Shown here: positions 30,503 through 59,131 of the stretch, in pieces | How the letters are laid out: each line of letters starts with the position of its first letter | Position numbering within the stretch: the stretch's first letter is position 1 | NCBI GenBank assembly: GCA_043803405.1 | Contig: JAZDKB010000019.1 | Location: 304,338 to 368,337 of the forward strand | Origin: Spirochaetota bacterium | Lineage (GTDB): Bacteria > Spirochaetota > UBA4802 > JAFGDQ01 | Direction of reading: 5' to 3' | Length of the DNA stretch: 64,000 bases | The notes under the pieces: model-generated | Told to the model about the DNA's origin: nothing | The model's input: the letters and a program-made list of their open reading frames with translations, nothing else | The model's database searches: none | Made by a program: the position numbers and the translations under genes

Positions 30503-31045
30503 AAAATTTTCTGCCCTGAGTACCGGTATATTTCCGGCAAAAAAAATGCCGGTCACTTACTAACAAATAATGCAGCGAATGGTAATTTTTACATGAATAA
30601 ACTGCGCTTAAATTATTTCTACTCGCGTATATTAGATTTATCCATTTTGATTGTATTGTTTGCAGATATATAAGATTTGGATTTTTATTAAAGCAGGCTT
30701 TATTTGTCAGGCTTTCCAAATTCAAAAACTGAATACAGTTACATCCAAAAAAACATAATCAGCATTTGAAAAATGAATTATAAAATCTTTTAAACTATAT
30801 CTATGAAATGTAAAAAAGTCAAATTCGAAATTATTCTTTCGAATAAAATGTTTCTGTTTTTAATAAATTAAAATTAAGTTGCTTATGAAACAATTACTTC
30901 CCGGTTTATTTTTAAAAAATGCAGGAAATATTAAGTGACTTTTTGAAACCCTCCTATTAATATTCTTATCAATCATATTTATTATTTATTCATTTATCAC
31001 AAATTAATTTCTTTATCTTTAATTTTAAAAATAAATCCCGTCAAA

Positions 31046-44036: not shown

Positions 44037-46130
44037 CTAATTAAGCAATGATGGCATAGTAGGATCAATCCACTGCTTGAGATAATCAATATATTCATGG
44101 CCGTACTTTGTATCAATAATCCATAGATTATAATATCTGTCTGTAACTATATAATTCAGGTTCAGATATTCAACAGGATAAACCATCACAGATATATTAT
44201 TATAATAATACATTCTCCCAAGCACATTAATTGCGTTATTCAGATTTTCCCATGGAAGATCCATATCAACAATAATGATCTTTATGCAATTCAATAATTC
44301 CGACATATTAATTCCAATGTCGGACCGGTCAATAATGAATACAGCTTTTAATTCATTATGTTCTTTTAATGAATATACATTGCATGACCTTGTTAACTGT
44401 ATCTTTTTATATATTTTTTCAAGAGGTTCTTCGTTAAAGTCCATATCAGGCCTCAGGCTTTTTACAAGAAGCCCTCCTCCTGATTGTTCCTGATAAAAGT
44501 TATCTAAAGTTTCATAATCCTCACTGTTAATTTCCTCAATTATAAATCCCTTATACAGGGACTCTGTATTTGAATGCATGGCACATGACAGATAAGCAAA
44601 TGTATCCAGTGTAACTCTTCCCGGATTATTAGCTTCCTTGTAAACTCCGCCGAAAAAATGTTCTGAAAACCTGTTATCAGGTTGATAGAAAAACATTAAA
44701 TAATCTATTTTGAATGCTGGAAGAATAAACATAATATCAAGATAATTTAAAACATGGTCTAGAATATGGATTCCTGTCTTATTTGTATTTTCTGTTGATA
44801 TGGCTGCTAGGTGCTGAACAAGCCATGATCTTTGATAAGCTCTAATTATGGAGCAATGTCCAAAAATTTTTCCGTTTTCCTGATATGTGATGTATGTGAA
44901 TATTTCCCGGCCTTTCCGGTATAGCCTGTTGTATATATCCCTGATCTCGCTGCTGCGTGATTCAATTAATTTATATTTCCTGGGATAAATAAATTTTGAT
45001 TTAAAGAAAAACTCCCATAAGGAATCAATATCCAGCTCAGGTGATAGGTTTATATGGGGATTATCGGCATTGCAGACTATCGCAAAAAGCCGGTTAAATG
45101 CATCCATCTCCATATCAAGAATGGAAAATCCATATTTGATATTCTTTTCGTCCACACTCAGCTGGTATACAACAGAAGCAGTACATTTTAAATTAATACT
45201 CCCGTTGATTACAATGTATAGCTCTTTAATGAAAAGTCCCGGCATAAGGGGGGACTCATCAATACGCAACTGCATGGCAAATCCTGCGGATGATATATCC
45301 GTCACTTCAAGTTCCATTGTTTTATTCAATAAAGGATGATTAAAAATGATTTTCGGTGCAGGCACAAGCTTAAGCCTGGGATTGCGGTTCTCTCTTTTTG
45401 TCCGATTCTTTAATGCGTTTTCCTGCGACAGGACAATAGAACAGTCATTCTGAAAAGCAGTCCTTTTATAACTGCAAAATCCTGAATAGACAATCTCCTC
45501 TCCGGTTATTTCTGCAGGCTCAGTGGATCGCAGCTCAACAAAAAACGGTTTGGCTGTATCCAATTTGTCAAGTAAAGGCTGGAATTCTTCATCCGGTTTT
45601 ATGAGGAAATCTGCGGAGCTGAATTCCTTTAAACTGCCGCATATCCTTATATTGTCCTGAATAATTTCCGCATTGACATCATCAGTGGCAGGGTATCTCC
45701 TGCTTTTTCTTCTGTTCCAGACGTAGCCTTTTACCGGCAGTGCCGCAATTAGCTTATCTTCGGTAACATCGATAGTTTCAACAGGAACTACTATAATTGA
45801 TTTGCCGTAATTAATAATAATATTCAGTAAAATATAATCGGCCGGATTATACTGTTCGTGTTTAATCCAGTGCGCCGTGAGATTCTCATCAACGCATGGC
45901 TCGGGAGATGCCATAACAGTAATGTTTTCTTTTGTTTCCGGGTTGTGAACATGTACCCGGATAGTGCTGCCGGCGAAGTGAATATGATTAATAAGATTGA
46001 TAATTGCGGCTTTTTTAATTCTTTTTGCTGAAGTTAAAGATCCGGCCGGAGCTCCGCCAAAGCTTTCCTTCAGCTCCGAAACTTCCAGCTCTTTGGCAAT
46101 AAGCCCGGTATTTGATAATGTAGCTTTCAT
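44037..46130 (-). CDS. Large (697 aa) hypothetical protein with one or two N-terminal PilZ-like (c-di-GMP-binding) motifs and an uncharacterised C-terminal domain of about 350 aa
   Basis: RRKSRRYP...(about 23 aa)...EFSSADF, and RENRNPRLKL...(28 aa)...EVTDISSAGFAMQL (RxxxR ... DxSxxG PilZ signature). Confidence 0.45.
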   Translation of the reverse strand: MKATLSNTGLIAKELEVSELKESFGGAPAGSLTSAKRIKKAAIINLINHIHFAGSTIRVHVHNPETKENITVMASPEPCVDENLTAHWIKHEQYNPADYILLNIIINYGKSIIVVPVETIDVTEDKLIAALPVKGYVWNRRKSRRYPATDDVNAEIIQDNIRICGSLKEFSSADFLIKPDEEFQPLLDKLDTAKPFFVELRSTEPAEITGEEIVYSGFCSYKRTAFQNDCSIVLSQENALKNRTKRENRNPRLKLVPAPKIIFNHPLLNKTMELEVTDISSAGFAMQLRIDESPLMPGLFIKELYIVINGSINLKCTASVVYQLSVDEKNIKYGFSILDMEMDAFNRLFAIVCNADNPHINLSPELDIDSLWEFFFKSKFIYPRKYKLIESRSSEIRDIYNRLYRKGREIFTYITYQENGKIFGHCSIIRAYQRSWLVQHLAAISTENTNKTGIHILDHVLNYLDIMFILPAFKIDYLMFFYQPDNRFSEHFFGGVYKEANNPGRVTLDTFAYLSCAMHSNTESLYKGFIIEEINSEDYETLDNFYQEQSGGGLLVKSLRPDMDFNEEPLEKIYKKIQLTRSCNVYSLKEHNELKAVFIIDRSDIGINMSELLNCIKIIIVDMDLPWENLNNAINVLGRMYYYNNISVMVYPVEYLNLNYIVTDRYYNLWIIDTKYGHEYIDYLKQWIDPTMPSLLN

Positions 46131-46298
46131 CAGAGACCTCGATTACATAGAATGGAAAAAAGGAAAGCGACATAATAATATAGTAATTGTTTATATTAAT
46201 AAAATAATGATAATAAAAATTGCAAGTATCTTTTTTAAATTTTTTCAGGTTTAAAACTTATATGGCGATTTAACTAAAAGCAGCTTGGGATCAATTTT

Positions 46299-47750
46299 TT
46301 AAAAGCTTCCGCCTGCAAGGAGGGCAAATCCGCCGCTTCCGGGACCTTTGGACAGATCCCACGCGTAATTGATCTCGATATATGAATGCTTGAATTCTAT
46401 TGAGCACCTTGCTCCGCCGCCTGTTCTGCTCTTCCATTCGAGCGTTTCATCCTGAAAGTAGCCTGTGTTCACAAAAGGCCCTGCGTAAATGAATTGCGGG
46501 ATTATCTCATATTCAATGTCCATAGCTGCCGTGTTTTTCCATTTGGAGGCAGTATAGTCATCGAAGAATCCAAGCAGCCTTTTGTCGTAAACGTATTGCC
46601 AAAAGTAACGTTCATCCATTGTTGTATAATACGAATAGAGCAGGGGAGTGACCCTGAACCGCGTAACAGGAGTGAACGCGGTCTTTAATTCTCCGGACGA
46701 AATAACATATATCTTCTCGCTCAAATCGCTTTTACCCGAAGATGCGGTTAACTTAAGGCCGCTTGCGTCCTTTCTTGAAAGCAAAGTTGATTTATTGGAG
46801 ATATTTATTTCCATGGTGATTCTTGTGTCGTAATCGCGGAATGTTTTTTCATCCGTCCTGTAATCCTTTATGTCCGATATTATTTCATTCGCGTATAGAT
46901 CAATAAATAAATATTTATATAATGCCCTGTATCCGAGAACCGGCGATAACGAACTTCTCCTGTAATCGGAGTCGCGGGATTCCCAGCGCTCAAGGAACGT
47001 GGCAATGTTCGTTCCGATATAGAAGCCGCGCGGATCATTGTCCGGAAAAAGAAAATATTTTACATCGAATTCCGCTCTCCTCAGTTTGCCTTCCCTGTAG
47101 CCAATCTTTGCGTAAAGATCGGCCGCTGTATCGATAAACGGGTAGTAATAACCGAGATACGGGGATATGCCGTAAACAGGTTCATAGCCCAGTCCCCCGT
47201 AGAAATTTCCTTTTTCTTTTTTATTGAGCTTTATGGACAGGAAGACGTCGCTTGTGTCTCCGTAATTGACAGGGTAAATCCGGACAGTATCCAGGCTGTA
47301 ATTATACTTAACTGTTTCCGCTGTTTTTTCTATCTCAAACCTGTTATAGATACTCCCAATGAACGGGTTAAATGTTTTTTCAACCTGATCCTTATTTTTG
47401 CCTTCGATGCCGCTGATGTTCAGCCCCAGTATCCTGGATTCCTTTACATGTATTTCCAGCACCCCGTCATCGCGCATCACCAGCTTTTCAACGTAGCTTG
47501 TAGTATAACCCTTTTCATGATATTCATCCGTCACTTTTACACCGATTGATTCAATATCTGTCTTTGATAACCCGCCTTTGATATTCGAAATATATTGCTT
47601 TATTTCAAGATCGATTGTGCTGCCAATGATCTCCGTGCGTTTAACCTCGATCGCAAAAAGATTCGGGCTGATCAGTAAAATAAATGTCAGGATAATTGAG
47701 AGAAAGGCGATTTTGTTAAATATTGCGGCAGGGGCGTTTGCGTTAAACAT
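46299..47750 (-). CDS. Omp85-family (BamA/TamA/TpsB-like) outer-membrane beta-barrel protein with a single POTRA-like domain. Start probably MFNANAPAAIF at 47750.
   Basis: Signal peptide, a POTRA-like N-terminal region, beta-strand-rich alternating aromatic pattern, and a C-terminal aromatic residue (F). Confidence 0.55.
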   Translation of the reverse strand: MFNANAPAAIFNKIAFLSIILTFILLISPNLFAIEVKRTEIIGSTIDLEIKQYISNIKGGLSKTDIESIGVKVTDEYHEKGYTTSYVEKLVMRDDGVLEIHVKESRILGLNISGIEGKNKDQVEKTFNPFIGSIYNRFEIEKTAETVKYNYSLDTVRIYPVNYGDTSDVFLSIKLNKKEKGNFYGGLGYEPVYGISPYLGYYYPFIDTAADLYAKIGYREGKLRRAEFDVKYFLFPDNDPRGFYIGTNIATFLERWESRDSDYRRSSLSPVLGYRALYKYLFIDLYANEIISDIKDYRTDEKTFRDYDTRITMEINISNKSTLLSRKDASGLKLTASSGKSDLSEKIYVISSGELKTAFTPVTRFRVTPLLYSYYTTMDERYFWQYVYDKRLLGFFDDYTASKWKNTAAMDIEYEIIPQFIYAGPFVNTGYFQDETLEWKSRTGGGARCSIEFKHSYIEINYAWDLSKGPGSGGFALLAGGSF

Positions 47751-47757
47751 ATTGTCC

Positions 47758-48591
47758 TCATTGTTGCAGGTATTTTTTCTTAGCATCAGCAGGGAACGCG
47801 GCTTTAAATAATTTCTCATCAACGGAATAGTTAAGGCGTATGCCGGAATATATCGTAATATTTCTCGTAATTCCTTTATCTGTTCTGGCGTAAATATCTA
47901 TTCTCGAAGGGAAGTTTATATTTTTTATTTTTTTATAATCTTCATATATTTCTTTCATGATTTCAACACCGGCGCTGTCAGTAATGATCTTTGAAAGTAG
48001 AGCTTTGTTCTTCGCGTCAATCATGATATTAAAGCTAAGTTTGTTTTTAACATCATCGACAATATATTGATGCGCTGAATTGAAAAAGCCGTAAAAATGC
48101 TTTCCCATGTAATTTATTTTAAATTGGTTGCCGGATTCATTTTGCTTAAATTCCTGAAGCGGATTGATTTTCGGTTTGTTCGGGACCGCATTGTTCCCGA
48201 TAATATACAGGACATTATCATCATGGAAATACCAGTAAAGTGAAGCGCCGTTGTTTAAAACTATTTGCTTTGAAGGCGCAGTGTAATCTATCCTGAAACG
48301 CCCCCTGTCGTCTGCTATGTATCTTCCTTTGAAAACTTCCCTGCCGTGTTCCGGCGTGTTTACATGCTGAACTATTTCAGCGTCTATTGATCTGATTCCT
48401 GTATTCGCTTCAATAATTTCGCTAAAGGGCAGGGGAGATGTTTCTTCCGCGGATGAAGCGGCATTAAATATTATTATAAAAAATACGGTTAAAATAATAT
48501 TTATTAAGGATTGATTCCGGGGTTTATGATGGGTAGTTGTCCCCGGATATGTGCCGCTCATGTGTAGTTTAAGATTACCCGGATTCTTCAT
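47758..48591 (-). CDS. LolA-like / DUF4292-like periplasmic or OM-lipoprotein-sorting-fold protein
   Basis: Signal/anchor. FKGRYIADDRGRFRIDYTAPSKQIVLNNGASLYWYF resembles the LolA beta-barrel N-terminal half. Confidence 0.4.
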   Translation of the reverse strand: MKNPGNLKLHMSGTYPGTTTHHKPRNQSLINIILTVFFIIIFNAASSAEETSPLPFSEIIEANTGIRSIDAEIVQHVNTPEHGREVFKGRYIADDRGRFRIDYTAPSKQIVLNNGASLYWYFHDDNVLYIIGNNAVPNKPKINPLQEFKQNESGNQFKINYMGKHFYGFFNSAHQYIVDDVKNKLSFNIMIDAKNKALLSKIITDSAGVEIMKEIYEDYKKIKNINFPSRIDIYARTDKGITRNITIYSGIRLNYSVDEKLFKAAFPADAKKKYLQQ

Positions 48592-48597
48592 TACAAA

Positions 48598-49197
48598 TTA
48601 AAGCTGTGTCATTAAATACATAATGCGGCTGGCCCTTTCCCTGGGCATAAGCGAAATAAGATATGAAGAGATGCTCGTTTTGCCTGCATTTGCCGCGTCC
48701 GCGTCGATCTGGCGCAGAACGTCGATCACCAGCGTGTCTTCCCAGTTCACAATGATCTGTATGGCTTCTTCCGGCCTCATGCTGTAGATCTTCTGGGCAA
48801 GATCCGTGACATTTTTTTTGTAGCCGGAATACATATGTTTTTCTTTTTCAATCTTTTCTTTCTCTAATCCAAGCCCTTTTCTTATTTCCTGAAGTTTCTC
48901 TTTTTCCTTTTCCAGTTCCTTTTCGGTCTGTTCAATGCCTGCCTCGCGCTTGTCCAGCTCCTCGATCCTTTCTTTAAGCTTTTCGTTCTGCTTTTCGAAC
49001 TCCTCGCGCTCAATCAGCGAAGGCTCATCATCGGCAGCGTCCACAACGGATGCGACATCGCTTTTTGTGTATGATCTGACTACTTTGTTTATATTCAGAA
49101 TACCGATGTAATCAAGCCAGAAAACACCTACAACCACGATAAATATTATCAGGATGATTAAGAAAAATACCTTTGCTCTTTCACTCGATAGTTTCAT
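48598..49197 (-). CDS. YlxF/MotE-like flagellar protein (N-terminal TM, coiled coil, C-terminal MgtE_N-like domain)
   Basis: It sits immediately after fliJ, as ylxF does in the Bacillus fla/che operon. EKEKEKLQE coiled coil. C-terminus RPEEAIQIIVNWEDTLVIDVL. Confidence 0.5.
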   Translation of the reverse strand: MKLSSERAKVFFLIILIIFIVVVGVFWLDYIGILNINKVVRSYTKSDVASVVDAADDEPSLIEREEFEKQNEKLKERIEELDKREAGIEQTEKELEKEKEKLQEIRKGLGLEKEKIEKEKHMYSGYKKNVTDLAQKIYSMRPEEAIQIIVNWEDTLVIDVLRQIDADAANAGKTSISSYLISLMPRERASRIMYLMTQL

Positions 49198-49261
49198 ATT
49201 TCACTTCCAGACTGCAATAATATAATTAAAAGTTTATCCTTAAAGGCAAACCCATAGCATT

Positions 49262-49834
49262 TCACTTTATATTCTGAATATATGCATCCATCACTTTTTT
49301 AATATAGTCATGCGTTTCCTTTATCGGAGGAATACCGCTATTCCTGTCAACAGCCTTTTCGCCTGCGTTATAAGCAGCCAGGGCTTTTTTAAAGTCCCAT
49401 TCATATTTATCCATCAGCTTTTTTAAAATGCCGACACCGGCCTGGATATTATCTTCGGCATTAAAAGGATTTGCCACCCCCATCTCGGCCAAAGCGCCGG
49501 GCATAAGCTGCATAAGCCCGGCCGCGCCCTTTCGCGAAACGGCATTGGGGTTGTAATCCGACTCTGCTTTAATGACAGCATCAACAAGAGCAGGGGGCAG
49601 TCCTTTTTTAATTGCGTAATCTTTCGCTATCTCTTTTATTTTAGGCACAGTAATATTTGTTTTAATTTCATTTTGCGAATCGGCCTTATTGCTGCCGGCA
49701 ATATGTTCATTAACGGAATTATCAAATTTATTATTTTGTGCATTGCTGATAAACTGGGCAGGCTTTTTTGTTGCTTTAAAACGCCTTTGAAGTTCATTGA
49801 TTCTGGTTAAAGCTTTATACATGTCTTCAAGCAT
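49262..49834 (-). CDS. Lytic transglycosylase (SLT domain) embedded in the flagellar operon. Likely a rod-associated peptidoglycan hydrolase.
   Basis: AESDYNPNAVSRKGAAGLMQLMP...AYNAG, the catalytic-Glu SLT motif set. Confidence 0.8.
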   Translation of the reverse strand: MLEDMYKALTRINELQRRFKATKKPAQFISNAQNNKFDNSVNEHIAGSNKADSQNEIKTNITVPKIKEIAKDYAIKKGLPPALVDAVIKAESDYNPNAVSRKGAAGLMQLMPGALAEMGVANPFNAEDNIQAGVGILKKLMDKYEWDFKKALAAYNAGEKAVDRNSGIPPIKETHDYIKKVMDAYIQNIK

Positions 49835-49851
49835 GTATTTTCTCCGTTATG

Positions 49852-50316
49852 TTATTGATAAAGATCATCTGCCCGATGTTTCTGGAATATCTTCTGATTC
49901 ATGTCGTCGTTCTCTTTTGCGATTTCCCTGTTAAAATTATATAAGAATTCCCTGAACTTTTTCTCTTTAAGCTTTTCCACTACTTTTTTCTGTTTCGATG
50001 CTTCTATTAATCTTCCCCTGACCTTTTGAATCTCAGGCTCCATCTGCTGTATCTTGTGCTCGGCAATGTTTATAGCCTTGTTGGCGGTCTCAGTAAATCT
50101 TTCGTACATCATTACTTCATTATAGGAAAATGTTTTTGCTTCAAGCATTGTCCTCAGGGCTTTTTTTCGTTCAGCCATGTTTTTCTGCAATTCAAACTGT
50201 TTGTTTCTTTCGATATTCTGGACATGAACAAGTGCTGCAAGTTCGTTTTTAATCTGCTTTTCCATTGCTTCGCGTATATCCAGCAGCTTATGCAGTTTAA
50301 ATTTAAATTTTTTCAT
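49852..50316 (-). CDS. fliJ: Flagellar export chaperone-like protein FliJ
   Basis: 154-aa all-helical coiled coil directly downstream of fliI. KFKLHKLLDIRE N-terminus. Confidence 0.75.
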   Translation of the reverse strand: MKKFKFKLHKLLDIREAMEKQIKNELAALVHVQNIERNKQFELQKNMAERKKALRTMLEAKTFSYNEVMMYERFTETANKAINIAEHKIQQMEPEIQKVRGRLIEASKQKKVVEKLKEKKFREFLYNFNREIAKENDDMNQKIFQKHRADDLYQ

Positions 50317-50370
50317 AGTTACTTAGTAAAATGTTTCATCGATATAAAAAAATTTTGGATGCACCATTAA

Positions 50371-51774
50371 TTATCTTTTAGCTGCAGGAAACGGCCGTCT
50401 CTGATTAATAAGATCTTTTCTCGGAGGTTTAACCGGTTCCTGTGTAAACATTCCTTTCAATTTAGAAAGAATATTATCATAGGTATCCTTTTCGTACATA
50501 TCCTGTTTTAAAAAGGCATTTATTTTGCCTATCATTTCAATTGCTTTATCCACCAGAGGATTGGAGCCTTTCGCGTACGCGCCAAGATTGATCAGGTCTT
50601 CAGCTTCCCTGTACGAAGCTAAAAGCTCCCTGAACTGGCCGGCTGCCTTCTGATGATCTTTTTCCGTTACATCGCGCATGCACCTGGATATCGAAGCAAG
50701 CACGTCAATGGCAGGGTAGTGGCCTTTGTTCGCAAGGTTGCGGTCAAGTACGAGGTGGCCGTCCAGGATACCTCTAACAGCATCGGCGATCGGCTCGTTC
50801 ATGTCGTCTGCTTCAACCAGAATAGTATAAAATCCGGTTATGCTGCCGCTTCCTTCTTTTGTGCCCGAGCGCTCCAGCAGCCTCGGCAGAAGTGAGAATA
50901 CCGAGGGCGGGAAGCCCCTGGTAGCGGATGGTTCGCCTGCCGCAAGCCCCACCTCCCTCTGCGCAAGGGCGAACCTGGTTACCGAGTCCATCATCAGGTT
51001 GACGTCTTTGCCCTTGTCCCTGAAGTATTCGGCTACTGCATGCCCCAGGAATGCGCCTCTAATTCTCAGCATAGGAGGCTGATCCGATGTCGCTACAACA
51101 ACAACAGAGCGCTTTAAGCCTTCTTCGCCAAGTTCCTTTTCCACGAAGTTCCTTACCTCGCGGCCGCGTTCTCCTATAAGTACTATTACGTTTATGTCTG
51201 CGGATGTGTACCGCGCTATCATTCCCAGTAAAATGGATTTGCCGACTCCGGAACCTGAGAATATTCCTATTCTCTGGCCCTTGCCTACGGTATTAAGGCC
51301 ATCGATGGCCCTGATCCCCACTGAAAGCGGTTTTTCTATAATGCTTCTTACAAGCGGATTCATCGATTTTCCCATAACAGGATAAGTTTCTTTAGTAAAA
51401 ATTTCTCCTTTACTGTCAAGGGGCTTACCGAGTCCGTTTATTACCCTGCCGAGCAGTTCCGGCCCAACAGGCACCGAAAGAGATGCTCCGGCTGCCGTTA
51501 CTTCTGCCCCGGCAATAACTCCCTTCATTTCTCCTATGGGCATCAGCACAATTCTGTCCTTATTGAAACCCACCACTTCGGCAAATAAAAATTCTCCGTT
51601 ATCGATCTCAATTTTGCATAATTCGCCGTGTTTAACAACCGGGCCCTTTGATTCTATTGTGAGGCCTACTACCCTTTCAACCCTGCCCGTAAACTTAATT
51701 ACTTCAGTCTGGTTTATCAGGTCTTTGTATTTGGAGAGTATGTCAATCTTTTCATGCGGGAGAATTTGTATCAT
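50371..51774 (-). CDS. fliI: Flagellum-specific ATPase FliI. Start reassigned to 51774 (MIQILPHE...).
   Basis: Walker A GSGVGKS. FliI/T3SS ATPase core ...AGEPSATRGFPPSVF... Confidence 0.95.
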   Translation of the reverse strand: MIQILPHEKIDILSKYKDLINQTEVIKFTGRVERVVGLTIESKGPVVKHGELCKIEIDNGEFLFAEVVGFNKDRIVLMPIGEMKGVIAGAEVTAAGASLSVPVGPELLGRVINGLGKPLDSKGEIFTKETYPVMGKSMNPLVRSIIEKPLSVGIRAIDGLNTVGKGQRIGIFSGSGVGKSILLGMIARYTSADINVIVLIGERGREVRNFVEKELGEEGLKRSVVVVATSDQPPMLRIRGAFLGHAVAEYFRDKGKDVNLMMDSVTRFALAQREVGLAAGEPSATRGFPPSVFSLLPRLLERSGTKEGSGSITGFYTILVEADDMNEPIADAVRGILDGHLVLDRNLANKGHYPAIDVLASISRCMRDVTEKDHQKAAGQFRELLASYREAEDLINLGAYAKGSNPLVDKAIEMIGKINAFLKQDMYEKDTYDNILSKLKGMFTQEPVKPPRKDLINQRRPFPAAKR

Positions 51775-52050
51775 TATATAATCCTGTATAATTAAAAAAA
51801 TAATTAGCCACAAAGGCGCAGAGACACGGAGAATCGTTTCTTAAAATATAGTTCTATTTAAAATAGACTTGTTTGAGTAAAATTTTAAATCATTTCATAA
51901 ATTAATTTAATACATTTCTATGCCTCAGTGTCTCTGTGGCATGTTTTTATAAAGCCTTAAAGTAATCGGTCATAAGGCTATTATAAATTTAACTTTATTA
52001 TGTCGCATCGCGCTTTAAAAAATACCGCTTAATTCGGTAAAAACCGGTTA

Positions 52051-52977
52051 TTAAACGGTTATTGCGCTGCGGATAGATTCTTCAATTGCGTCAAGCTGTG
52101 TCGAAACCCTTGCATCAATAGCGCCTACGTCGGTTTCAATAATACATCCGCCGCGGTCTACTCTGTTGTCTTCATATATGTTTACTTTCTTTAATGAATC
52201 CATCATTTTTATAAGCTCATCTTTATGAGCTGTAGTCATATCAAGGTCGGCAAAGTTAACGCGGATGTCGATCCTGTCTCTGTCTTTGACTCTTTGTATC
52301 GCTTCTTTAATATTGTTTATAACAACTTCGCGTCTTTCAACAATCTCATCTTTAATTACTTTTCTGGATATCATGAGGATCATGTCAGTCATCAGCTTTT
52401 CGGATGATCTTATAATATCGTCCCTGATGTCTACTGCTGTGGAAACAATGGTGCCCAGCCTGTCAACAAGCCTTAATACCTCGGCCTGGCCCTCTTTATA
52501 TCCTTCTTCGCGGCCTGCCTCGTATCCTTTTTTATATGCCTGGTGTTCGATTTCCGAGACCTTTAGCTCGGCTTCCTTAATCATTTTTTCCGCTTCGTAT
52601 TTGCCGCGCTCTATTTCCTGATCCGTTTCGATCTTGAATTTTTCTCTTTCTACTTTTATCTGCTCTTTTGCTTCCTGCAGTTGCTTGAACGCGGCTGCTT
52701 TTCCGTTCTCGATTATTTGATTTTCCTGCTGTCTTGCCTCATCGATAAGCTTGCGGACTTCTTCCTCTGTTTCTCTTCTGTAACGCTCAAGTTCCGCTTC
52801 CATTTCTTCAATGGACGGGCCCTGGTAAACATCTATTGGGTTGCCGTGTTCATCAACTTCGTATTCCTTGTATTCTTCATCGGAAATAACATTTTTTTGA
52901 TATTTTTCCGGAAGTTCTATCTGCTTAACAGTCTGTACAAATTTTATTTCGTTCGGTTTAAATACTAACTTAGACAA
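52051..52977 (-). CDS. fliH: Flagellar assembly protein FliH
   Basis: Glu/Lys-rich coiled coil, then AYKKGYEAGREEGYKEGQAE, then a C-terminal FliH domain. Overlaps the fliG stop. Confidence 0.8.
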   Translation of the reverse strand: MSKLVFKPNEIKFVQTVKQIELPEKYQKNVISDEEYKEYEVDEHGNPIDVYQGPSIEEMEAELERYRRETEEEVRKLIDEARQQENQIIENGKAAAFKQLQEAKEQIKVEREKFKIETDQEIERGKYEAEKMIKEAELKVSEIEHQAYKKGYEAGREEGYKEGQAEVLRLVDRLGTIVSTAVDIRDDIIRSSEKLMTDMILMISRKVIKDEIVERREVVINNIKEAIQRVKDRDRIDIRVNFADLDMTTAHKDELIKMMDSLKKVNIYEDNRVDRGGCIIETDVGAIDARVSTQLDAIEESIRSAITV

Positions 52978-53986
52978 TTAATTCCTCCTCGCCTGCTCTT
53001 GCTACAATTATGTCTCCGGCATCTTCAAGTTTTCTGATAATATTGACAATTTTTTGCTGGGATTCTTCAACATCCCGGAGCCTGATCGGTCCCATAAAAT
53101 CCATATCTTCGCGCAGCAGGGAAGCGGCTCTCTTGGACATGTTCCGGTATATTTTCTCCTGAACTTCGGCATCGACTCCCTTCAATGCCTTGCCGAGATC
53201 CTGGTTGTCGACTTCGCGCAGTACTTTCTGAATGGACCTGTCGTCAAGAAGCACGATGTCTTCAAAGATAAACATTCTCTTTTTAATTTCTTCCGCAAGT
53301 TCAGGGTCTTCCTCTTCCAGCGCTTCTATGATGATTTTTTCGGTTCCGCGGTCAACCTGGTTCAGTACTTCTACTATTGCGTCTATACCGCCTGCCGATG
53401 TATAGTCCTCACTTGCCAGCGTGGATAATTTTCTTTCAAGTACTCTTTCGACTTCACGCAGAACGTCCGGAGATGTTCTGTCCATGGTTGCTATTCTTCT
53501 GGCTACGTCGGCCTGTATCTGGTGGCTGAGGCCGCCCAGAATTAAAGCTGCTTTATTCGGTTCAAGATAGGATAATATTAATGCGATTGTCTGAGGATGC
53601 TCCCCCTGAATAAAGTTAAGCAAATGGCTCGGATCTGTTCTCCGTATAAAGTCGAAAGGCCTGACCTGCAAAGATGATGTTAGCCTGTTGACAATATCAA
53701 TTGCCTTTTGCGTACCGAGAGCTCTTTCAAGTACTTCGCGTGCATAGTCAATGCCCCCGGAAGAAATAAAACCCTGCGCCATCATCATTTCCTGGAATTC
53801 CATGAGGACTTTATCTTTATCCTCGGCTTCTACTTTGTCCAGTCTTGCGATCTCAAAAGTTAACTGCTCTATCTCGTCTTCGCGCAGATGTTTAAATATT
53901 TCGGATGAAACATCGGAGCCAAGGGATACGAGAAATACGGCAGCTTTTTGTCTGCCTGTCAGTTGGGATTTTTTGGATTGAAGCAT
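52970..53986 (-). CDS. fliG: Flagellar motor switch protein FliG
   Basis: LTGRQKAAVFLVSLGSDVSSEIFKHL...EEIKKRMFIFEDI. 338 aa. Confidence 0.9.
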   Translation of the reverse strand: MLQSKKSQLTGRQKAAVFLVSLGSDVSSEIFKHLREDEIEQLTFEIARLDKVEAEDKDKVLMEFQEMMMAQGFISSGGIDYAREVLERALGTQKAIDIVNRLTSSLQVRPFDFIRRTDPSHLLNFIQGEHPQTIALILSYLEPNKAALILGGLSHQIQADVARRIATMDRTSPDVLREVERVLERKLSTLASEDYTSAGGIDAIVEVLNQVDRGTEKIIIEALEEEDPELAEEIKKRMFIFEDIVLLDDRSIQKVLREVDNQDLGKALKGVDAEVQEKIYRNMSKRAASLLREDMDFMGPIRLRDVEESQQKIVNIIRKLEDAGDIIVARAGEEELIV

Positions 53987-54217
53987 CCTTTTACCTCACA
54001 ACTCAATCCTTACAAGTATTGTTAATAAATGATATAAGGTTGCTGTGCTTTATGTAATTTATACGCAATGAGCCGAATTAAAATTTACATTAAACTTCAC
54101 AATATTTATTATTTCTATATGAAAGCCGCACATCGCATTAATTATAATATATATATGAATAATCGGCAGTCAAGTCCGTTTTTATGATGAAGTTTTAACC
54201 GGTCTCAAATTACCACA

Positions 54218-55918
54218 TTATTCTTCGGCCAGCCATGTTTTTAACAGCTGAGCCACTTCATCCGGCCTCTCTTTAGCCAGATTAACCGCGTTTTTCTGAA
54301 GTTCAAGCCTTGCTTTTTCTTCAAGCGAAAGTTCAACATCAACGCCTTCTTCTTCTGCGGCTCTTAAGGCAGCTTCACGCATTCTCTGCTGTTCAAGCGC
54401 CAGCCGTTCCTCTTTCATCCTTCTTCTTCTTGCAAGCTCTCTCGATATAAATCTGAATAAAATTATGCCAAGCACAAGGGCAAATACCCCGATAAGGGCT
54501 GCAAGCAGCGTTTTCCGTATCCTTTCTTTTTTTATAAAATCTTCACGGACTTCCTGCCATTGTTTTGTCCTGTCAAACATGATATTCTCAACAGCGACCT
54601 GGTCTCCGCGCCCTTCATTGAAATTAATGGATTTTTTAACGATATTTTCAGCCTGTTTAAGCTCATCGCGTGAAAGAGCTGCCTGTACAGGGGGTTTCGT
54701 CGGATCAAGATCATATTCTCCGTCGGCGGTTCTCGGCATAGACTGGCTGCCATCTATCGCAATTGCAACGGACAGACTTGTAATGTCATAGGGATCGCGC
54801 TGAATTTTTTTTAATGTTTTATTAACAGCGTAATTTCGTACGTTTTCCTGTTTGTCGTATTTCGAAAACTGGTCGTCGCTGGCCTTATAACCAGGAGGTG
54901 TATTGCTTTCCGTGCCGGCCGGGCCCTGTGGATTCCAGCCGTGTCCCTGGAAATTTTCCGATGTAGCTTTCTCCGAAATAACAAAGGAATCCTTAACCTT
55001 TCTTGTGGAATACGGCTTTGTCGGGTCGTTGGGTTCCATTTCAATCGGAGTATATTCTTCCTTATCTTCCGAAACGACATCCCAGTTGAATGCCATGTTT
55101 AATCTTACAATCTGGATCCTGTCCGGAGTATAAATCCTTTCAAGCCCTGCTCTTATATCCTTTAAAAGCTGAACTCTCGCTTTCTCTTCGATTTTTCTTC
55201 TGCTTTCAACAAGAGAAAACTCGGCTTTTGCTTTATCAATGTCGTCATCAAATTCTGAAATAATGTTTCCGAGTTCGTCCGTTACAGTAACATTTTCAGG
55301 TTTCAGTTTGCCTCCCACAGCTCTTGAAACCAGATACATAATACCTTTAATTTCTTTTTTGCTTAACTTATCGTATCCCGGGGCAAGATGGACGGTTACA
55401 GCGGCAGTATAAGGATTGTCTTTTTCGGTAAATAACTCGTCCTGGGTGATTGCGATCTCAACATCTGCTTTATCGATATTTTTTAAGGATTCGATATGTT
55501 TTTTAATCTCGTCGCGGAGAGCCCTCATGTACTTTACGTCGATTTCCCTGTTCGTTTCAGTCCAGTTCGACAGATCGAATAGCTTCCAGCCGGGGATGCC
55601 TTTAGGAATCATGTTTTCCTGGGCAAGCCGTGTGAGCATTTGTTCCCTTTGATCGGGATGTACAAAGATTGAGGTAGTTCCTGTTGTTTTATACCGGAAT
55701 CCCAGTTCCTCCAGCTTTTTGGTTACCTGCCCGAAATCTTCTGATGGAAGTTCGGAAAAAAGAACCACGTCGGCCTTTGTACCCGAGACTGAAAAAAGCA
55801 CAATAAATGAGATACAAACAACAGCTAAAACAACTATTGAAATAATCTTTTTTGTTTTATCCAGCTTTAAAAAGATATCTTTTAGCTGATTGAACAGTTT
55901 CTTAATGAATTCTCCCAT
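54218..55918 (-). CDS. fliF: Flagellar MS-ring protein FliF
   Basis: 566 aa. N-terminal TM, a ring-building region, and a C-terminal TM plus charged tail. Confidence 0.9.
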   Translation of the reverse strand: MGEFIKKLFNQLKDIFLKLDKTKKIISIVVLAVVCISFIVLFSVSGTKADVVLFSELPSEDFGQVTKKLEELGFRYKTTGTTSIFVHPDQREQMLTRLAQENMIPKGIPGWKLFDLSNWTETNREIDVKYMRALRDEIKKHIESLKNIDKADVEIAITQDELFTEKDNPYTAAVTVHLAPGYDKLSKKEIKGIMYLVSRAVGGKLKPENVTVTDELGNIISEFDDDIDKAKAEFSLVESRRKIEEKARVQLLKDIRAGLERIYTPDRIQIVRLNMAFNWDVVSEDKEEYTPIEMEPNDPTKPYSTRKVKDSFVISEKATSENFQGHGWNPQGPAGTESNTPPGYKASDDQFSKYDKQENVRNYAVNKTLKKIQRDPYDITSLSVAIAIDGSQSMPRTADGEYDLDPTKPPVQAALSRDELKQAENIVKKSINFNEGRGDQVAVENIMFDRTKQWQEVREDFIKKERIRKTLLAALIGVFALVLGIILFRFISRELARRRRMKEERLALEQQRMREAALRAAEEEGVDVELSLEEKARLELQKNAVNLAKERPDEVAQLLKTWLAEE

Positions 55919-56069
55919 GAATTATCCCTCCCAATTCATGATATGCGACATAACACATAATTCACACAATAAAAAAAATTTGTAAAGTAAAATTTTAGTT
56001 ATATACAAAAAAAGCATTTTTGCACATTTTACCTGGGACATAAAATACTTAACGAAGATCATCCTGCTT

Positions 56070-56408
56070 TTACCTTAAATTCATTAATTCTCTGTACGAT
56101 CTTATCGCTTCGTCTCTTACGGCTTTAGTGAAGTTTAAAGCGATTTCAGCCTTCTGAGCGGCTATCATTACCGTGTGAATATCCACCGATTCCGGCTCGT
56201 GAATCATCTTCTGGTTCAGTTCATCCGAGTCACCGAGCAGATTATTTACTTTCCCTACAGCTTTCATTAATGCATCTGCGAAGGAGCCGGTTACATCATC
56301 AGCTGCACGCTCAAACTTTTGTTCTTCTTTTATTCCTGTATAATGAAGCGGATGGCTGGTTTTCATGTTAACAATAGTGCCTAAAGTTTTATCTGCGATT
56401 GTGTTCAT
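56070..56408 (-). CDS. fliE: Flagellar hook-basal body protein FliE
   Basis: 112 aa with the C-terminus VDIHTVMIAAQKAEIALNFTKAVRDEAIRSYRELMNL. Confidence 0.85.
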   Translation of the reverse strand: MNTIADKTLGTIVNMKTSHPLHYTGIKEEQKFERAADDVTGSFADALMKAVGKVNNLLGDSDELNQKMIHEPESVDIHTVMIAAQKAEIALNFTKAVRDEAIRSYRELMNLR

Positions 56409-56418
56409 TGTAATTCTC

Positions 56419-56562
56419 CTAAGCTGTTTTTAAATTTTGCAATACTGCGGGTTTTTGATACTGTCCTTCGCGCGGTTCCAGCCTTTCTTTTCTTATATTT
56501 ATTCTGCCTGAAAGATCGTGGGAAAGGTTGATTTCTTTTTCGCCTATTATTTCTTTGTTCAT
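56419..56562 (-). CDS. Possible small ORF (47 aa, MNKEIIGEKEINLSHDLSGRINIRKERLEPREGQYQKPAVLQNLKTA) between flgC and fliE
   Basis: A GGAGAA RBS 5 nt upstream of the ATG. The stop lies immediately before the fliE RBS. It is absent from the track because it is under 60 aa. Confidence 0.25.
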   Translation of the reverse strand: MNKEIIGEKEINLSHDLSGRINIRKERLEPREGQYQKPAVLQNLKTA

Positions 56563-56688
56563 TTGTTTTCTCCTTAACTATGTATTGTCTTAAGATTTAC
56601 CACAGAGATGCAGAGGTACAGAGTTTTAAAAGATAAAAAAATTGAAATTTTTCATATTCAATATATTTTTAATATATACTGTTTGTTT

Positions 56689-57147
56689 TTATGCTCTGCC
56701 CAGTTCAAGCGCCTTGCCGAACATCGCTTTTGTGTTATTTATCATCATTACATTTGCTTCATAAGACCTTGAGGCAGATATTAAATCCACCATTTCGGTA
56801 ACAACATCCACGTTCGGCATTTCAACATAGCCTTTTTTGTCCCCGATTTTAACGGCATCGGGATGGGTCGGATCGTAAACAAGCCTGAAAGGCTTTTGGT
56901 CGTCTTCTATCTTTACGATTCGAACTCCCTGTCCGGTCCCGTGCTCAATTCTGCCGGGGACAAGAGGGGACTTGTAAAACGGTCTTACGTTTACAGGCGC
57001 AAATACAGCGCGCTTTCTTCTGTATGCTCCGCCTTCGGGTGTGCGGGTTGTTGTGGCGTTAGTGATGTTATTGCTTATCAGATCCATCCGGAGCCTCTGG
57101 GCTGTAAGCCCGGTTGATGCAACGTTCAGTTCAGTGAACATTCCCAT
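56689..57147 (-). CDS. flgC: Flagellar basal-body rod protein FlgC
   Basis: MFTELNVASTGLTAQRLRMDLISNNITNATTT. C-terminus YVEMPNVDVVTEMVDLISASRSYEANV. Confidence 0.95.
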   Translation of the reverse strand: MGMFTELNVASTGLTAQRLRMDLISNNITNATTTRTPEGGAYRRKRAVFAPVNVRPFYKSPLVPGRIEHGTGQGVRIVKIEDDQKPFRLVYDPTHPDAVKIGDKKGYVEMPNVDVVTEMVDLISASRSYEANVMMINNTKAMFGKALELGRA

Positions 57148-57158
57148 AATTTATCTCC

Positions 57159-57601
57159 TTATGGAGTCGGCCTCATGGCGTTCTTTAGATTTCTGTAATT
57201 ATTGTTAAGAAGAGTAATATATGCGTTATATCTCATCTGGTTTTTCGCGGAATCGACAATTTCTTTTTCAATATCAACGTTATTTCCGTCATTTCTCATT
57301 GTTGTGTTATAATCAAGATTTATCCTGGGCTGTACGCTTTCAATTTCTCTGGGTGTATAGAACGGAATATGTCTTTTTTCAGTTAACTTTGCCGGCAGTT
57401 TGTTATCCGGGTCCTGCGCTTCCATTATTGCTCTCCTTAGCTCGCTTTCGAAATTAACTTCGCTTCTTTTAAAGTGCGGTACGTCCACATTTGCGACGTT
57501 ATTGGCTATCACTTTTCTGCGGATAGACTCTACATCCAGGGCTTTTTCCAGTAGAGTATTGACCTGCATTGATTTGCTTGTATCGAACATGATTTTCCTT
57601 C
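57159..57601 (-). CDS. flgB: Flagellar basal-body rod protein FlgB. Start reassigned to 57601 (MFDTSK...).
   Basis: IANNVANVDVPHFKR N-terminal rod motif. An AAGGAAAA RBS. Confidence 0.9.
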
Positions 57602-57826
57602 TTATGACCGATATTTCAAGGCAGGGTGAATTAATACACTGCCTTGTTATATACATCGGAATATTTAAAAAAAGCATAATAAATTTTTTTAATGAGACAT
57701 AAATTTTTTTTTCAATATTTGAATGCTAAATCATTAAAATAGCCAGCCGGGTCTGGCATAAATGTATTGAAAAATAAACGCCGTTTTTCATTATGTTATT
57801 GAGAATAATTATTTTACGAGGCCAAT
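57602..57826. promoter_or_regulatory. Divergent promoter region for the flgB operon (-) and the paaK operon (+). It contains the 8-bp-stem hairpin CAAGGCAG-ggtgaattaatacac-TGCCTTG (57629-57658) in the flgB leader.
   Basis: Intergenic position. Hairpin read directly. Confidence 0.5.
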
Positions 57827-59131
57827 ATGATTTTTAATAAAGAATACGAAACTATGCCGGAAAAGAAGATGAAAGAGCTTCAGCTTGAACGGCTTAAGTG
57901 GTCAATTAATCACGCATATAACAATAATTCATTTTTTAAAAAAAAGTATGATGAAGCCGGTTTTAATCCTGCTCAGCTTAAATCCCTTGAAGATGTAAAA
58001 AGAATACCTTTTTTAACAAAAGACGACATGAGGAATAATTATCCTTTCGGGCTATTTGCTGTTCCTCTGGACAAGGTCGTCAGGGTGCATGCGTCGTCGG
58101 GAACAACCGGTAAACCAACGGTAGTAGGGTACACAAAAAACGATATAGAAGTATTTTCCGAAGTAATGGCAAGAGGGCTGGCATGCTGCGGCGCAACGGA
58201 AAAGGATATTATACAGGTTGCATTTGGTTACGGGCTGTTTACAGGCGGGCTGGGCTATCATTACGGCGCAGAAAGGCTTGGCGCCATGGTAGTACCCACT
58301 TCGAGCGGGAATTCCGAGAGACAGCTGACTTTAATTCAGGATTTCGGCACTACTATGATCGCCTGTACACCGTCGTATATTTTAAATGTTGCTGATCATA
58401 TAGAAAGAAAGAGGCCGGATTACAATATAAGAGCTACAAAGCTAAGACGCGGAGTATTCGGCGCAGAGCCGTGGTCTGAGGGCATGAGAAAAGAAATTGA
58501 ATCGCGGCTCGGCATTGAGGCTTTCGATCTGTACGGGCTTAGCGAGATTATCGGGCCTGGAGTATCTTCCGAATGTTCACATAAACCCGGCATGCATGTT
58601 TTTGAGGATCATTTTTATCCTGAGGTCATTGATCCGGAAACAGGCGAAGTTTTGCCGGAGGGAGAGAAGGGCGAGATAGTTTTTACGACCCTCACTAAAG
58701 AAGCCTTTCCCGGCATTCGTTACAGGACAAGGGATATTTCGCGGCTATACAGGGAAAGCTGCGAATGCGGCCGCACATATATCAAAATGGAAAAAGTTAC
58801 AGGCAGAAGCGATGATATGCTTATCATAAAAGGAGTTAACCTGTTCCCGTCGCAGATTGAATCCGTGCTCATGGAGATTGAGGGCACAGAGCCGCATTAT
58901 CAGATCATTGTGGACAGGAAAGGCGCGCTTGACGAAATTGAGGTTATGGTTGAAGTAGACGAAAAGCTTTTCTCGGACGAAGTAAAGGTGCTGGATAGCC
59001 TGAAGAAAAGGATCAAGGAGAAGTTTAAAAGCGCTCTGAGCATATCGGCAACTATTAATCTGGTTGAGCCTATGACTATTCCCAGAAGCGAAGGAAAGGC
59101 AGTTCGCGTTATTGATAAACGAAAGATATAA
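57827..59131 (+). CDS. paaK: Phenylacetate-CoA ligase family (PaaK / F390 synthetase-like)
   Basis: [24 protein letters not shown]... SSGTTGKPT adenylation motif. 434 aa. Confidence 0.9.

Follow-up and report, generated by a model that had tools for sequence, protein, structure and literature searches.

The flgB motor operon and its flanking genes

The analysed stretch (the window, 64,000 nucleotides) comes from a MAG labelled Spirochaetota at NCBI, and its host is an uncultured, Leptospirales-like Spirochaetota bacterium. On the minus strand the ORF list gives the order flgB-flgC-(47-aa ORF)-fliE-fliF-fliG-fliH-fliI-fliJ-SLT-flbB, followed by a gene for a LolA-fold protein and one for an Omp85 protein. 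Every gene named in the initial annotation is present on this strand at or near the place first assigned to it, and the proposed order flgB-flgC-fliE-fliF-fliG-fliH-fliI-fliJ-(ylxF-like) is borne out by ORFs and family matches. The features are:

57159..57590, minus strand: flgB (proximal rod); TIGR01396 E 8e-35; tblastn 76-84% identity
56689..57147, minus strand: flgC (rod); ORF list; 85-90% identical to relatives' FlgC with Flg_bbr_C
56419..56562, minus strand: small ORF, 47 aa; present in every related operon (46-58 aa)
56070..56408, minus strand: fliE; PF02049 E 3e-20
54218..55918, minus strand: fliF (MS ring); ORF, 80-86% identical to relatives with YscJ_FliF
54146..54173, minus strand: sigma-70-like promoter motif, fliF-fliG spacer; TTGACT-16/18-TATATT/TATTAT; 10/12 match
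52970..53986, minus strand: fliG (rotor/C-ring); ORF, 96-98% identical to relatives' FliG
52051..52977, minus strand: fliH; NF005198 E 2e-92; PF02108 E 9e-22
51806..51940, minus strand: imperfect inverted repeat, fliH-fliI gap; GCCACAGAGACAC ... GTGTCTCTG..GTGGC
50371..51774, minus strand: fliI (export ATPase); corrected ATG start 51774
49852..50316, minus strand: fliJ; TIGR02473 E 1e-15
49262..49834, minus strand: lytic transglycosylase (SLT), 190 aa; PF01464 E 6e-25
48598..49197, minus strand: flbB (spirochaete collar/E-ring protein); NF047368 E 2e-53, 181 bits vs cut-off 110
47758..48591, minus strand: predicted LolA/LolB-fold protein (DUF4292); PF14125 27.5 bits vs cut-off 23
46299..47750, minus strand: predicted Omp85-superfamily outer-membrane protein; signal peptide, two POTRA-like units, 16-strand barrel, C-terminal Phe

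FlgB, FliE, FliH and FliJ score above curated Pfam/NCBIfam cut-offs. FlgC, FliF, FliG and FliI were identified not by a scan of the window, but via the precomputed Pfam matches of 80-98% identical orthologues (Flg_bbr_C, YscJ_FliF, FliG_N/M/C and T3SS ATPase, respectively). Three starts were corrected: that of flgB to an internal Met at 57590, since the relatives' proteins have only 142-143 aa and a start at 57677 (172-aa ORF) was rejected for this reason; that of fliI to 51774, where ATGATACAAA is invariant in 4 relatives (relatives' FliI, 466-468 aa); and that of the Omp85-like gene to 47750. The fliH gene has a TTG start and overlaps the end of fliG by 8 nt.

The gene initially called YlxF/MotE-like was rightly placed, as it is flbB, whose product is a member of the MotE/FlgY/FlbB group COG3334 (PMC13023049). 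Like Borrelia FlbB (BB0286), the window protein matches the collar-protein equivalog over its full length (the model bears the name 'periplasmic-type flagellar collar protein'), and a transmembrane helix lies at its N-terminus (residues 12-26). FlbB is an inner-membrane-anchored collar/E-ring protein of periplasmic flagella. Spirochaete flagella remain periplasmic, and the FlbB equivalog together with the Spirochaetota label implies that the filament stays inside the outer membrane.

Additional genes and intergenic elements of the operon

The 47-aa ORF before fliE, at first listed as a possibility, is real and conserved, as gene calls include it in each of the related operons. An AAGGAG Shine-Dalgarno site precedes it, its stop codon overlaps the fliE ribosome-binding site, and in its alignment E.IGE.(E/D)I(N/H)I(S/T)H(D/E)(L/I)S is kept as a motif while identity drops from 81% to 23%. 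Pfam and NCBIfam profile searches gave no family match. In the window, in L005-L008, in the P0003 contig and in 3 of 4 outgroup operons (L025, L027, L028), the SLT gene occupies the place between fliJ and flbB. The small ORF and the SLT gene both belong to the conserved gene set of the operon in this lineage.

The SLT domain spans residues 71-173 with an invariant catalytic-type E91-S92, and the N-terminus is conserved as well. Inspection for a Sec signal, a lipobox and a hydrophobic segment (max KD 0.23) was negative. The best NCBIfam match is the SLT part of the flagellar lytic transglycosylase BB0259 (E 9e-17). A lytic transglycosylase dedicated to the flagellum, as initially suggested, is plausible given an operon position kept in the subclade and in most of the outgroup operons. 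The enzyme would be the operon's own peptidoglycan cutter for passage of rod and hook, and presumably either uses the flagellar type III apparatus for its export, as FlgJ does, or acts with a single-domain FlgJ.

The long gaps noticed earlier at flgC-fliE, fliF-fliG and fliH-fliI measure 280, 231 and 276 nt, 144 nt of the first being the conserved small ORF. In the corresponding fliF-fliG spacer of 7 of 9 loci, TTGAC(T/A)-N17-TAT(A/T)(A/T)T occurs with diverging flanks, a conserved promoter-like site. In the fliH-fliI gap, the arms cagagacac/gtgtctctg (51937-51929 and 51827-51819) surround about 100 nt of AT-rich spacer. This long-range stem does exist, as the gap folds better than its shuffles (z = -3.06; 2 of 200 equal or better), but it is not conserved in the relatives L005, L007 and L008. 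The motif CTCTGCNNCTNTGTGG has 3 copies in the window (51808-23, 51924-39, 56600-15) versus 0.58 expected and zero copies in 28 related loci, and by this distribution the repeat is a genome-specific motif.

At the end of the operon genes are tightly packed, with 6 nt between flbB and the LolA-like gene and 7 nt between the latter and the Omp85-like gene (7-8 bp in the initial annotation, whose claim of tight spacing stands). No minus-strand terminator-like site was found from fliI to the end of the Omp85-like gene, so that none separates the last two genes from flbB, and their co-transcription, already proposed from the spacing, is likely.

A LolA-like/Omp85-like gene pair in flagellar and non-flagellar contexts

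Besides PF14125, the LolA-like protein gives weak matches to LolA profiles. It carries a signal-peptidase-I-type signal with a hydrophobic segment at 28-42, and sequence inspection revealed no lipobox Cys; without a lipid anchor its topology is not LolB-like. The AF2 model (pLDDT 78) retrieved LolA, NE2245 and P. gingivalis LolA3/LolB in Foldseek at E 3e-11 to 2e-7, with RseB also among the structural matches. According to profile and model, the product is a soluble periplasmic LolA/LolB-fold protein. The modelled Omp85-like protein has the Omp85 fold with a 16-strand barrel and 2 POTRA units. In structure its barrel resembles TamA and BamA most, the top matches also include FhaC and CdiB, and profile search adds a weak ShlB-type POTRA match. 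On the model, the most fitting description is a barrel of TamA/BamA type that carries two POTRA domains.

The two genes are strictly paired: in each of the 17 related loci that include upstream DNA, the Omp85-like gene has the LolA-like gene immediately 5' of it, and the identities of the two products to the window proteins co-vary (r = 0.98, 16 loci). Across the family, the pair is independent of flagellar genes. It follows flbB only in the window and five relatives (L005-L008 and the P0003 contig), which form one monophyletic clade nested among non-flagellar contexts, so the synteny by which a flagellar tie was to be judged holds in one subclade only. In eight other species (L001, L002/L013, L004, L012, L014, L015, L016, L019) the pair stands beside unrelated genes, including those for fumarase, mfd, PrsW and GGDEF. 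In four outgroup genomes (L025-L028) the flagellar operon ends at flbB; L025 belongs to the MAG of L001 and L026 to that of L017, where the pair is on another contig.

The spacer between flbB and the LolA-like gene is 2-8 nt in the syntenic relatives, and 141-319 nt lie 5' of the stand-alone pair. Among matches with an NCBI MAG label, the pair appears once each in the window MAG and the L001 MAG, which fits relocation rather than duplication. We propose that in one subclade the pair moved to a place right after flbB, losing the spacer that it had upstream; its transcription now probably occurs by read-through from the flagellar operon, and the LolA-like gene is probably translated by coupling. 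Since tight linkage to flbB is retained in six genomes with Omp85 identity down to 48%, there may be selection for co-expression of the pair with motor genes in this subclade.

Function of the pair and comparison with known systems

The most fitting interpretation of the pair is an envelope module of two genes, self-contained and inherited together by vertical descent. Our preferred reading of the region, to which we give a probability of roughly 60%, is a spirochaete-type flgB motor operon to which a free-standing envelope pair, not flagellar parts, has been appended in one subclade. We infer that the LolA-fold protein would take hydrophobic cargo, either acyl chains of lipoproteins or a lipid, across the periplasm and dock on the POTRA domains of the Omp85 protein dedicated to it; the Omp85 protein in turn would insert the cargo into, or pass it through, the outer membrane. 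A cargo, ABC extractor or lipoprotein gene linked to the pair was found in none of the loci.

The LolA-fold protein could instead be cargo rather than carrier, exported by the Omp85 protein to the surface or medium to bind a hydrophobic ligand there. Two POTRA units and a 16-strand barrel are the TpsB architecture, the ShlB-type, FhaC and CdiB matches point the same way, and the strict operon of two genes, in which the partner bears a Sec signal, is reminiscent of tpsA/tpsB; even so, we regard such two-partner secretion as unlikely. Somewhat more doubtful is a specialised beta-barrel-assembly or envelope-stress module, in which the Omp85 paralogue folds certain OMPs and the LolA/RseB-like protein either chaperones them or senses lipid or OMP that is mislocalised. 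The proximity of the barrel to TamA and BamA and the RseB match are consistent with this, as is an RseC-like gene after the pair in five loci (L011, L017, L018, L020, L023) and some 4.6 kb from it in one more (L021), but the RseC identity comes from reading of the sequence and is not a tool result. Moreover, we know of no LolA-fold proteins acting as OMP chaperones. The insertase-typical Arg/Asp pair of the lid-lock is also replaced: the motifs are recognisable as LLGF in loop 6 and FVNxG in strand 13, where the standard is (L/M)RG(W/Y) and FxDxG (PMC11358297), and with Leu and Asn in place of the charged residues the barrel may work differently from insertases.

A dedicated flagellar accessory that builds or anchors an outer-membrane-associated flagellar part or aids outer-membrane passage, hence its co-regulation with the motor, is very improbable: the packing behind flbB without a terminator, its retention in six genomes, and reviews stating that collar components are still unidentified and that partners are often encoded downstream of E-ring genes (PMC13023049) speak for it, but FlbB indicates periplasmic flagella, in eight other species the pair does not adjoin flagellar genes, flbB is the last gene of the outgroup operons, all collar proteins named in the two papers examined (FlbB, FlcA-E) are TPR or MotE-type, and neither LolA nor a beta-barrel protein is mentioned in that review. 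The outer-membrane assembly or penetration module initially suggested is not supported, and flagella that stay in the periplasm have no need of a penetration module.

The Borrelia burgdorferi flgB motility operon shares the order flgB-flgC-fliE-fliF-fliG-fliH-fliI-fliJ-flbB with the window. It goes on into flgE, motAB and fliLMN, whereas the window operon stops after flbB, apart from the appended pair, and differs by the small ORF (flgC/fliE), the SLT gene (fliJ/flbB), the long spacers and the promoter-like site 5' of fliG. With BB0259 (LTaseBb) of Borrelia and SltF of Rhodobacter, the SLT protein has the catalytic domain and E-S motif in common. However, it has 190 aa rather than 717 aa, reaches 61 bits against a full-length BB0259 cut-off of 234, is encoded inside the flgB operon, and lacks the Sec signal or lipobox, while BB0259 and SltF are Sec-exported (PMC8517470).

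The LolA-like protein shares the open beta-barrel LolA fold and periplasmic targeting with LolA/LolB carriers and the Bacteroidota paralogues (DUF4292), but it is far below the equivalog cut-offs (LolA 22 vs 112 bits, LolB1 20 vs 50 bits) and it is paired with an Omp85 barrel instead of LolCDE or LolB. The Omp85-like protein is 11-13% identical to TamA and BamA and has two POTRA domains where these have three or five, and no TamB/AsmA-like or Bam lipoprotein partner adjoins its gene. In Borrelia, the Omp85 barrel BBJ25 clusters with the LolA-like BBJ28 and a MacB-type ABC transporter, for which a role in exporting an apolar ligand was proposed (PMC13078400). No sequence similarity between the window pair and BBJ25/BBJ28 was detectable (hhalign probability below 1%); BBJ25 has 346 aa and no POTRA domains, and BBJ23-29 comprises seven genes including the ABC transporter and TPR proteins, whereas the window pair is two genes. 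Nevertheless, both loci link a spirochaete Omp85 barrel to a Sec-exported LolA-fold protein.

The flagellar operon of the window

This locus holds an ordinary motor operon of the spirochaete type, with a LolA-like and an Omp85-like gene (the pair) as the last two genes behind flbB.

Genes of the flagellar operon and of the pair in the window
57159-57590, minus strand, flgB
56689-57147, minus strand, flgC
56419-56562, minus strand, small ORF, 47 aa
56070-56408, minus strand, fliE
54218-55918, minus strand, fliF
52970-53986, minus strand, fliG
52051-52977, minus strand, fliH
50371-51774, minus strand, fliI
49852-50316, minus strand, fliJ
49262-49834, minus strand, SLT-domain (lytic transglycosylase) gene
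48598-49197, minus strand, flbB
47758-48591, minus strand, LolA-like gene
46299-47750, minus strand, Omp85-like gene

The window proteins FlgB, FliE, FliH and FliJ passed curated thresholds, and FlgC, FliF, FliG and FliI were named via 80-98% identical orthologues carrying precomputed Pfam hits. Mechanical ORF calling placed the starts of flgB, fliI and the Omp85-like gene too far 5'; they were set to 57590, 51774 and 47750, respectively, from the relatives and the invariant ATGATACAAA. The distal spacers are short (fliI-fliJ 54 nt, fliJ-SLT 17 nt, SLT-flbB 64 nt, flbB-LolA-like 6 nt, LolA-like-Omp85-like 7 nt), and no minus-strand terminator-like sites were found from fliI to the end of the Omp85-like gene. 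This confirms the gene array of the initial annotation. Motility genes also occur elsewhere in the window, at 21-1451 and 21958-23460: one is fliD, the filament cap gene (FliD_C, E 1e-50), and the other encodes a chemoreceptor that has a CZB zinc-binding domain.

Judged by its family profile, the protein first labelled YlxF/MotE-like is the spirochaete collar protein of periplasmic-type flagella, FlbB: it reaches 180.9 bits against NF047368 (cut-off 110), residues 9-197 matching positions 2-192 of the 193 in the model. It has an N-terminal transmembrane helix and no cleavable signal (hydrophobic segment 12-26, KD 3.66), and its gene lies downstream of fliJ with the SLT gene between them. An N-terminal helix and a position after fliJ in the motor operon are features described for FlbB (PMC13023049). 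A review from 2026 (PMC13023049) unites FlbB with FlgY, MotE and related proteins as COG3334, the E-ring of the motor, so the earlier label was right in kind.

The SLT domain (PF01464, E 6e-25) contains E91-S92, invariant in 5 orthologues. The position of its gene, flanked by fliJ and flbB, is conserved in the subclade that carries the pair behind flbB (the window, loci L005-L008 and the P0003 contig) and in three of four outgroup operons (L025, L026, L027, L028), which are flagellar operons ending at flbB; at this place L026 has a 144-aa gene (9200-9634) with no SLT match on record. The best NCBIfam match of the protein is the SLT part of BB0259, a flagellar lytic transglycosylase of Borrelia and a binding partner of single-domain FlgJ (PMC8517470). 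As in BB0259 and SltF, an SLT catalytic domain with the catalytic Glu is present, but the window protein is short and has neither a Sec signal nor a lipobox, whereas BB0259 and SltF carry Sec signals (PMC8517470). Its first 85 residues contain no hydrophobic segment (maximum KD 0.23) and no Cys, and the conserved N-terminus reads MLxDMYxVLxRINEIQxRF. By analogy to Salmonella FlgJ, we infer that the protein may be exported via the flagellar type III system. A role in rod penetration, as suggested at the outset, is a reasonable assumption in view of the conserved operon position.

Small ORF, spacers and repeats

The possible 47-aa ORF before fliE has a strong Shine-Dalgarno site, and all related operons have a small ORF call of 46-58 aa at the equivalent position, with a common N-terminal motif across 23-81% identity. 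It matches no family in Pfam or NCBIfam and probably represents a genuine component or regulator that has escaped annotation. In locus L006, an extra 88-aa gene (1854-2120) lies between fliE and fliF. The fliF-fliG spacer contains a TTGACT-N16/18-TATATT/TATTAT site, and this promoter-like motif recurs in 7 of 9 loci while the surrounding sequence diverges, which is good comparative evidence for a putative internal promoter 5' of fliG. Together with the Sec-signal-less lytic transglycosylase behind fliJ, the conserved small protein between flgC and fliE and the promoter-like site before fliG represent lineage-specific features of the operon.

The long fliH-fliI spacer occurs only in the window, L005, L007 and L008. 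The long-range stem noticed in this gap folds better than chance (z = -3.06) and is in this respect real, but it is not conserved: the relatives have unrelated inserts at that place, which rules out a conserved element. Each arm is a copy of the short motif CTCTGCNNCTNTGTGG, of which the window has three (51808-51823, 51924-51939 and 56600-56615; 0.58 expected). All three are intergenic in the flagellar operon, the third lying in the spacer between flgC and the 47-aa ORF, and none was found in 28 related loci. The stem seems to be a repeat particular to this genome and not a conserved regulatory structure, and the motif itself may be such a repeat or a protein-binding site. In L007 and L008, fliH is directly followed by strong GC hairpins with U-runs; the window hairpin is weak (z = -0.22), and no terminator is claimed there. 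Rfam searches of the whole window at the gathering threshold, and of 46000-58000 at E<=1, returned nothing credible in the long spacers.

Other repeats lie elsewhere in the window. A 21-bp tandem repeat at 27441-27641 (9.6 copies, 85% matches, unit TCATTTGAAGCTTCGCGCAAC) occupies the spacer between an AcrB/CusA-like RND pump gene (24137-27373) and a CusB/HlyD-like gene with a heavy-metal-binding domain (27885-29261); an OEP outer-membrane factor gene is found at 29258-30556. On the plus strand, a 241-aa ORF (36275-37000) consists mostly of degenerate 18-24-nt repeats coding for Ala, Lys and Asp, and has no match in Pfam.

Genomic context of the LolA-like/Omp85-like pair

Contexts were fetched for family members across the whole identity range, and operon genes were located by tblastn. 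Wherever upstream DNA is available (17 loci), the LolA-like gene stands immediately 5' of the Omp85-like gene, and the identities of both proteins to those of the window co-vary (r = 0.98, 16 loci). Only in L005, L006, L007, L008 and the P0003 contig, with 48-67% Omp85 identity to the window, does the pair follow a full flgB...flbB array. At 32-48% identity, the pair stands beside unrelated genes (L001, L002/L013, L004, L012, L014, L015, L016, L019), including those for fumarase, mfd, PrsW protease, a GGDEF protein and 2-hydroxyglutaryl-CoA dehydratase. Neighbour joining groups the flagellum-linked copies into a single clade that is nested within the remainder of the tree. A protein identical to the Omp85-like one of the window is on record from a MAG labelled 'Spirochaetota bacterium', and the relatives are without exception from Spirochaetota or 'uncultured Leptospirales' MAGs.

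The converse search, for flagellar operons without the pair, started from FlbB homologues. In L025, which shares its MAG with L001, the order is flgB-flgC-(58 aa)-fliE-fliF-fliG-fliH-fliI-fliJ-SLT-flbB, where the operon stops against a convergent gene, and in L026 (same MAG as L017), L027 and L028 it likewise stops at flbB. In L026, flbB is followed by two DUF4349 genes. Both searches together reveal two conserved units, a flagellar operon ending at flbB and a two-gene pair, and the joining of flbB to the pair is derived and confined to one subclade. The spacer 5' of the pair measures 141-319 nt where it stands alone and 2-8 nt behind flbB; most likely, the pair in the window lineage therefore relies on upstream transcription.

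Hence, the pair is independent of the operon and was appended to it in one lineage. The initial annotation had suggested that it is a dedicated outer-membrane assembly or penetration module of the flagellum and named synteny in relatives as a test; beyond one subclade this link fails. Spirochaete flagella turn within the periplasm, so that an outer-membrane penetration module has no obvious task, and the proposal is unsupported. A flagellar role gained later, within the subclade, has a low probability. For flagellar biology the locus is mainly corrective, as operon adjacency by itself can mislead.

No shared neighbours of the ABC/MacB, lipoprotein or TamB type were found; the neighbours comprise genes of metabolism and signalling, mfd, and GreA and DUF1015 genes. 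In L011, L017, L018, L020 and L023, where the pair is non-flagellar, the Omp85-like gene is followed by genes for a small membrane protein and then a GreA-like protein, and in four of these a DUF1015-like gene comes next. From its sequence, by eye, the small membrane protein resembles the RseC/SoxR-reducing-system type; a homologue is encoded in L021 (5411-5887), ~4.6 kb downstream of the Omp85-like gene. In the window, the gene that comes directly after the Omp85-like gene, behind a 168-nt AT-rich spacer with promoter-like sites, encodes a 697-aa protein (44037-46130, minus strand) with a weak PilZ-domain match under the cut-off (E 5e-4). This position is not kept in relatives; a small PilZ gene is found near the pair in L004, L015 and L019.

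The proteins of the pair and known systems

The AlphaFold2 model of the Omp85-like protein is confident (pLDDT 87.5, 35-sequence alignment) and comprises a signal peptide, two POTRA-like beta-alpha-alpha-beta-beta units (residues 38-103 and 106-177) and a C-terminal 16-stranded beta-barrel with a C-terminal Phe, the architecture of the Omp85 superfamily. The POTRA region has profile matches to those of BamA and CdiB (E 7e-6 to 1e-4), Pfam POTRA_2 staying under its cut-off (E 0.0025), and Foldseek matched the model to BamA, TamA, FhaC and CdiB (E 1e-17 to 1e-18) at 11-15% identity. Omp85 proteins carry lid-lock motifs in loop 6, (L/M/V)RG(W/Y/F), and in strand 13, FxDxG (PMC11358297). Mapped by motif and predicted strand number rather than by structural superposition, the corresponding sites fit by position and read L392-L393-G394-F395 in loop 6 (377-403; G in 35/35 sequences) and F426-V-N428-T-G430 in strand 13. 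With LLGF and FVNxG in place of (L/M)RG(W/Y) and FxDxG, the lid-lock Arg-Asp pair appears replaced (Arg by Leu, Asp by Asn). Among 1.84 billion representative proteins searched by profile, there were ~60 full-length members of 450-490 aa, other Omp85 proteins matching in the POTRA region only; by these profiles the family is small and distinct.

The LolA-like protein passes Pfam DUF4292 (27.5, cut-off 23), with LolA and LolB1 matches sub-threshold and 22 bits against the LolA equivalog TIGR00547 (cut-off 112). Its model (pLDDT 78) is a LolA-superfamily open barrel, matched by Foldseek to LolA, NE2245 and P. gingivalis LolA3/LolB (E 3e-11 to 2e-7). Because A-x-A type cleavage sites follow a hydrophobic signal segment and the first 60 residues lack Cys, it is a soluble periplasmic protein and not a lipoprotein: the LolA fold comes with a cleavable Sec signal and without a lipid anchor.

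We interpret the pair as an autonomous module of the envelope, in which the periplasmic LolA-fold carrier would pass hydrophobic cargo to its dedicated Omp85 partner. With a rough probability of one in five, the pair could serve lipoprotein or lipid delivery to or across the outer membrane in the spirochaete lineage, replacing LolB or a surface-lipoprotein translocase, its expression being wired to the motor in the subclade. The narrower version, that the subclade recruited the pair as an outer-membrane anchor or insulator of the periplasmic flagellar motor, is less likely. No LolB or surface-lipoprotein translocase is known from spirochaetes. How their many lipoproteins are inserted or surface-exposed without LolB is unresolved (PMC13078400, PMC11358297), and a strictly paired LolA-fold carrier and Omp85 barrel make a clean two-gene candidate for this route, which renders the pair modestly interesting. 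Alternatively, it could be a TPS-like system with the LolA-fold protein as its cargo. Compared with TpsB, plug helix H1 is absent, the sole N-terminal helix being the signal peptide, and the adjoining gene encodes a LolA fold instead of a TpsA with a TPS domain. A further alternative is an OMP-assembly or stress module. BamA has five POTRA domains and TamA three; the Omp85-like protein has two POTRA units, and in none of 17 loci does an AsmA/TamB-like or Bam lipoprotein gene adjoin the pair.

Within the known superfamilies, the pair is a new and uncharacterised form. The LolA-like protein resembles P. gingivalis LolB (TM 0.58-0.68) but lacks the lipobox Cys and with it the lipid anchor of LolB, and no ABC transporter that could correspond to LolCDE, the partner of LolA, is found near the pair. 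No LolA or barrel folds were found in the literature for the collar proteins FlcA-E. Orthology to Borrelia BBJ25/BBJ28 was rejected, since neither tblastn of the Omp85-like protein against the plasmids nor hhalign of both family profiles gave similarity. The BBJ23-29 cluster is still the nearest published analogue, the likeness being architectural only. It differs in that no ABC transporter accompanies the pair, and with two genes the pair is a simpler genetic target than the seven-gene BBJ cluster.
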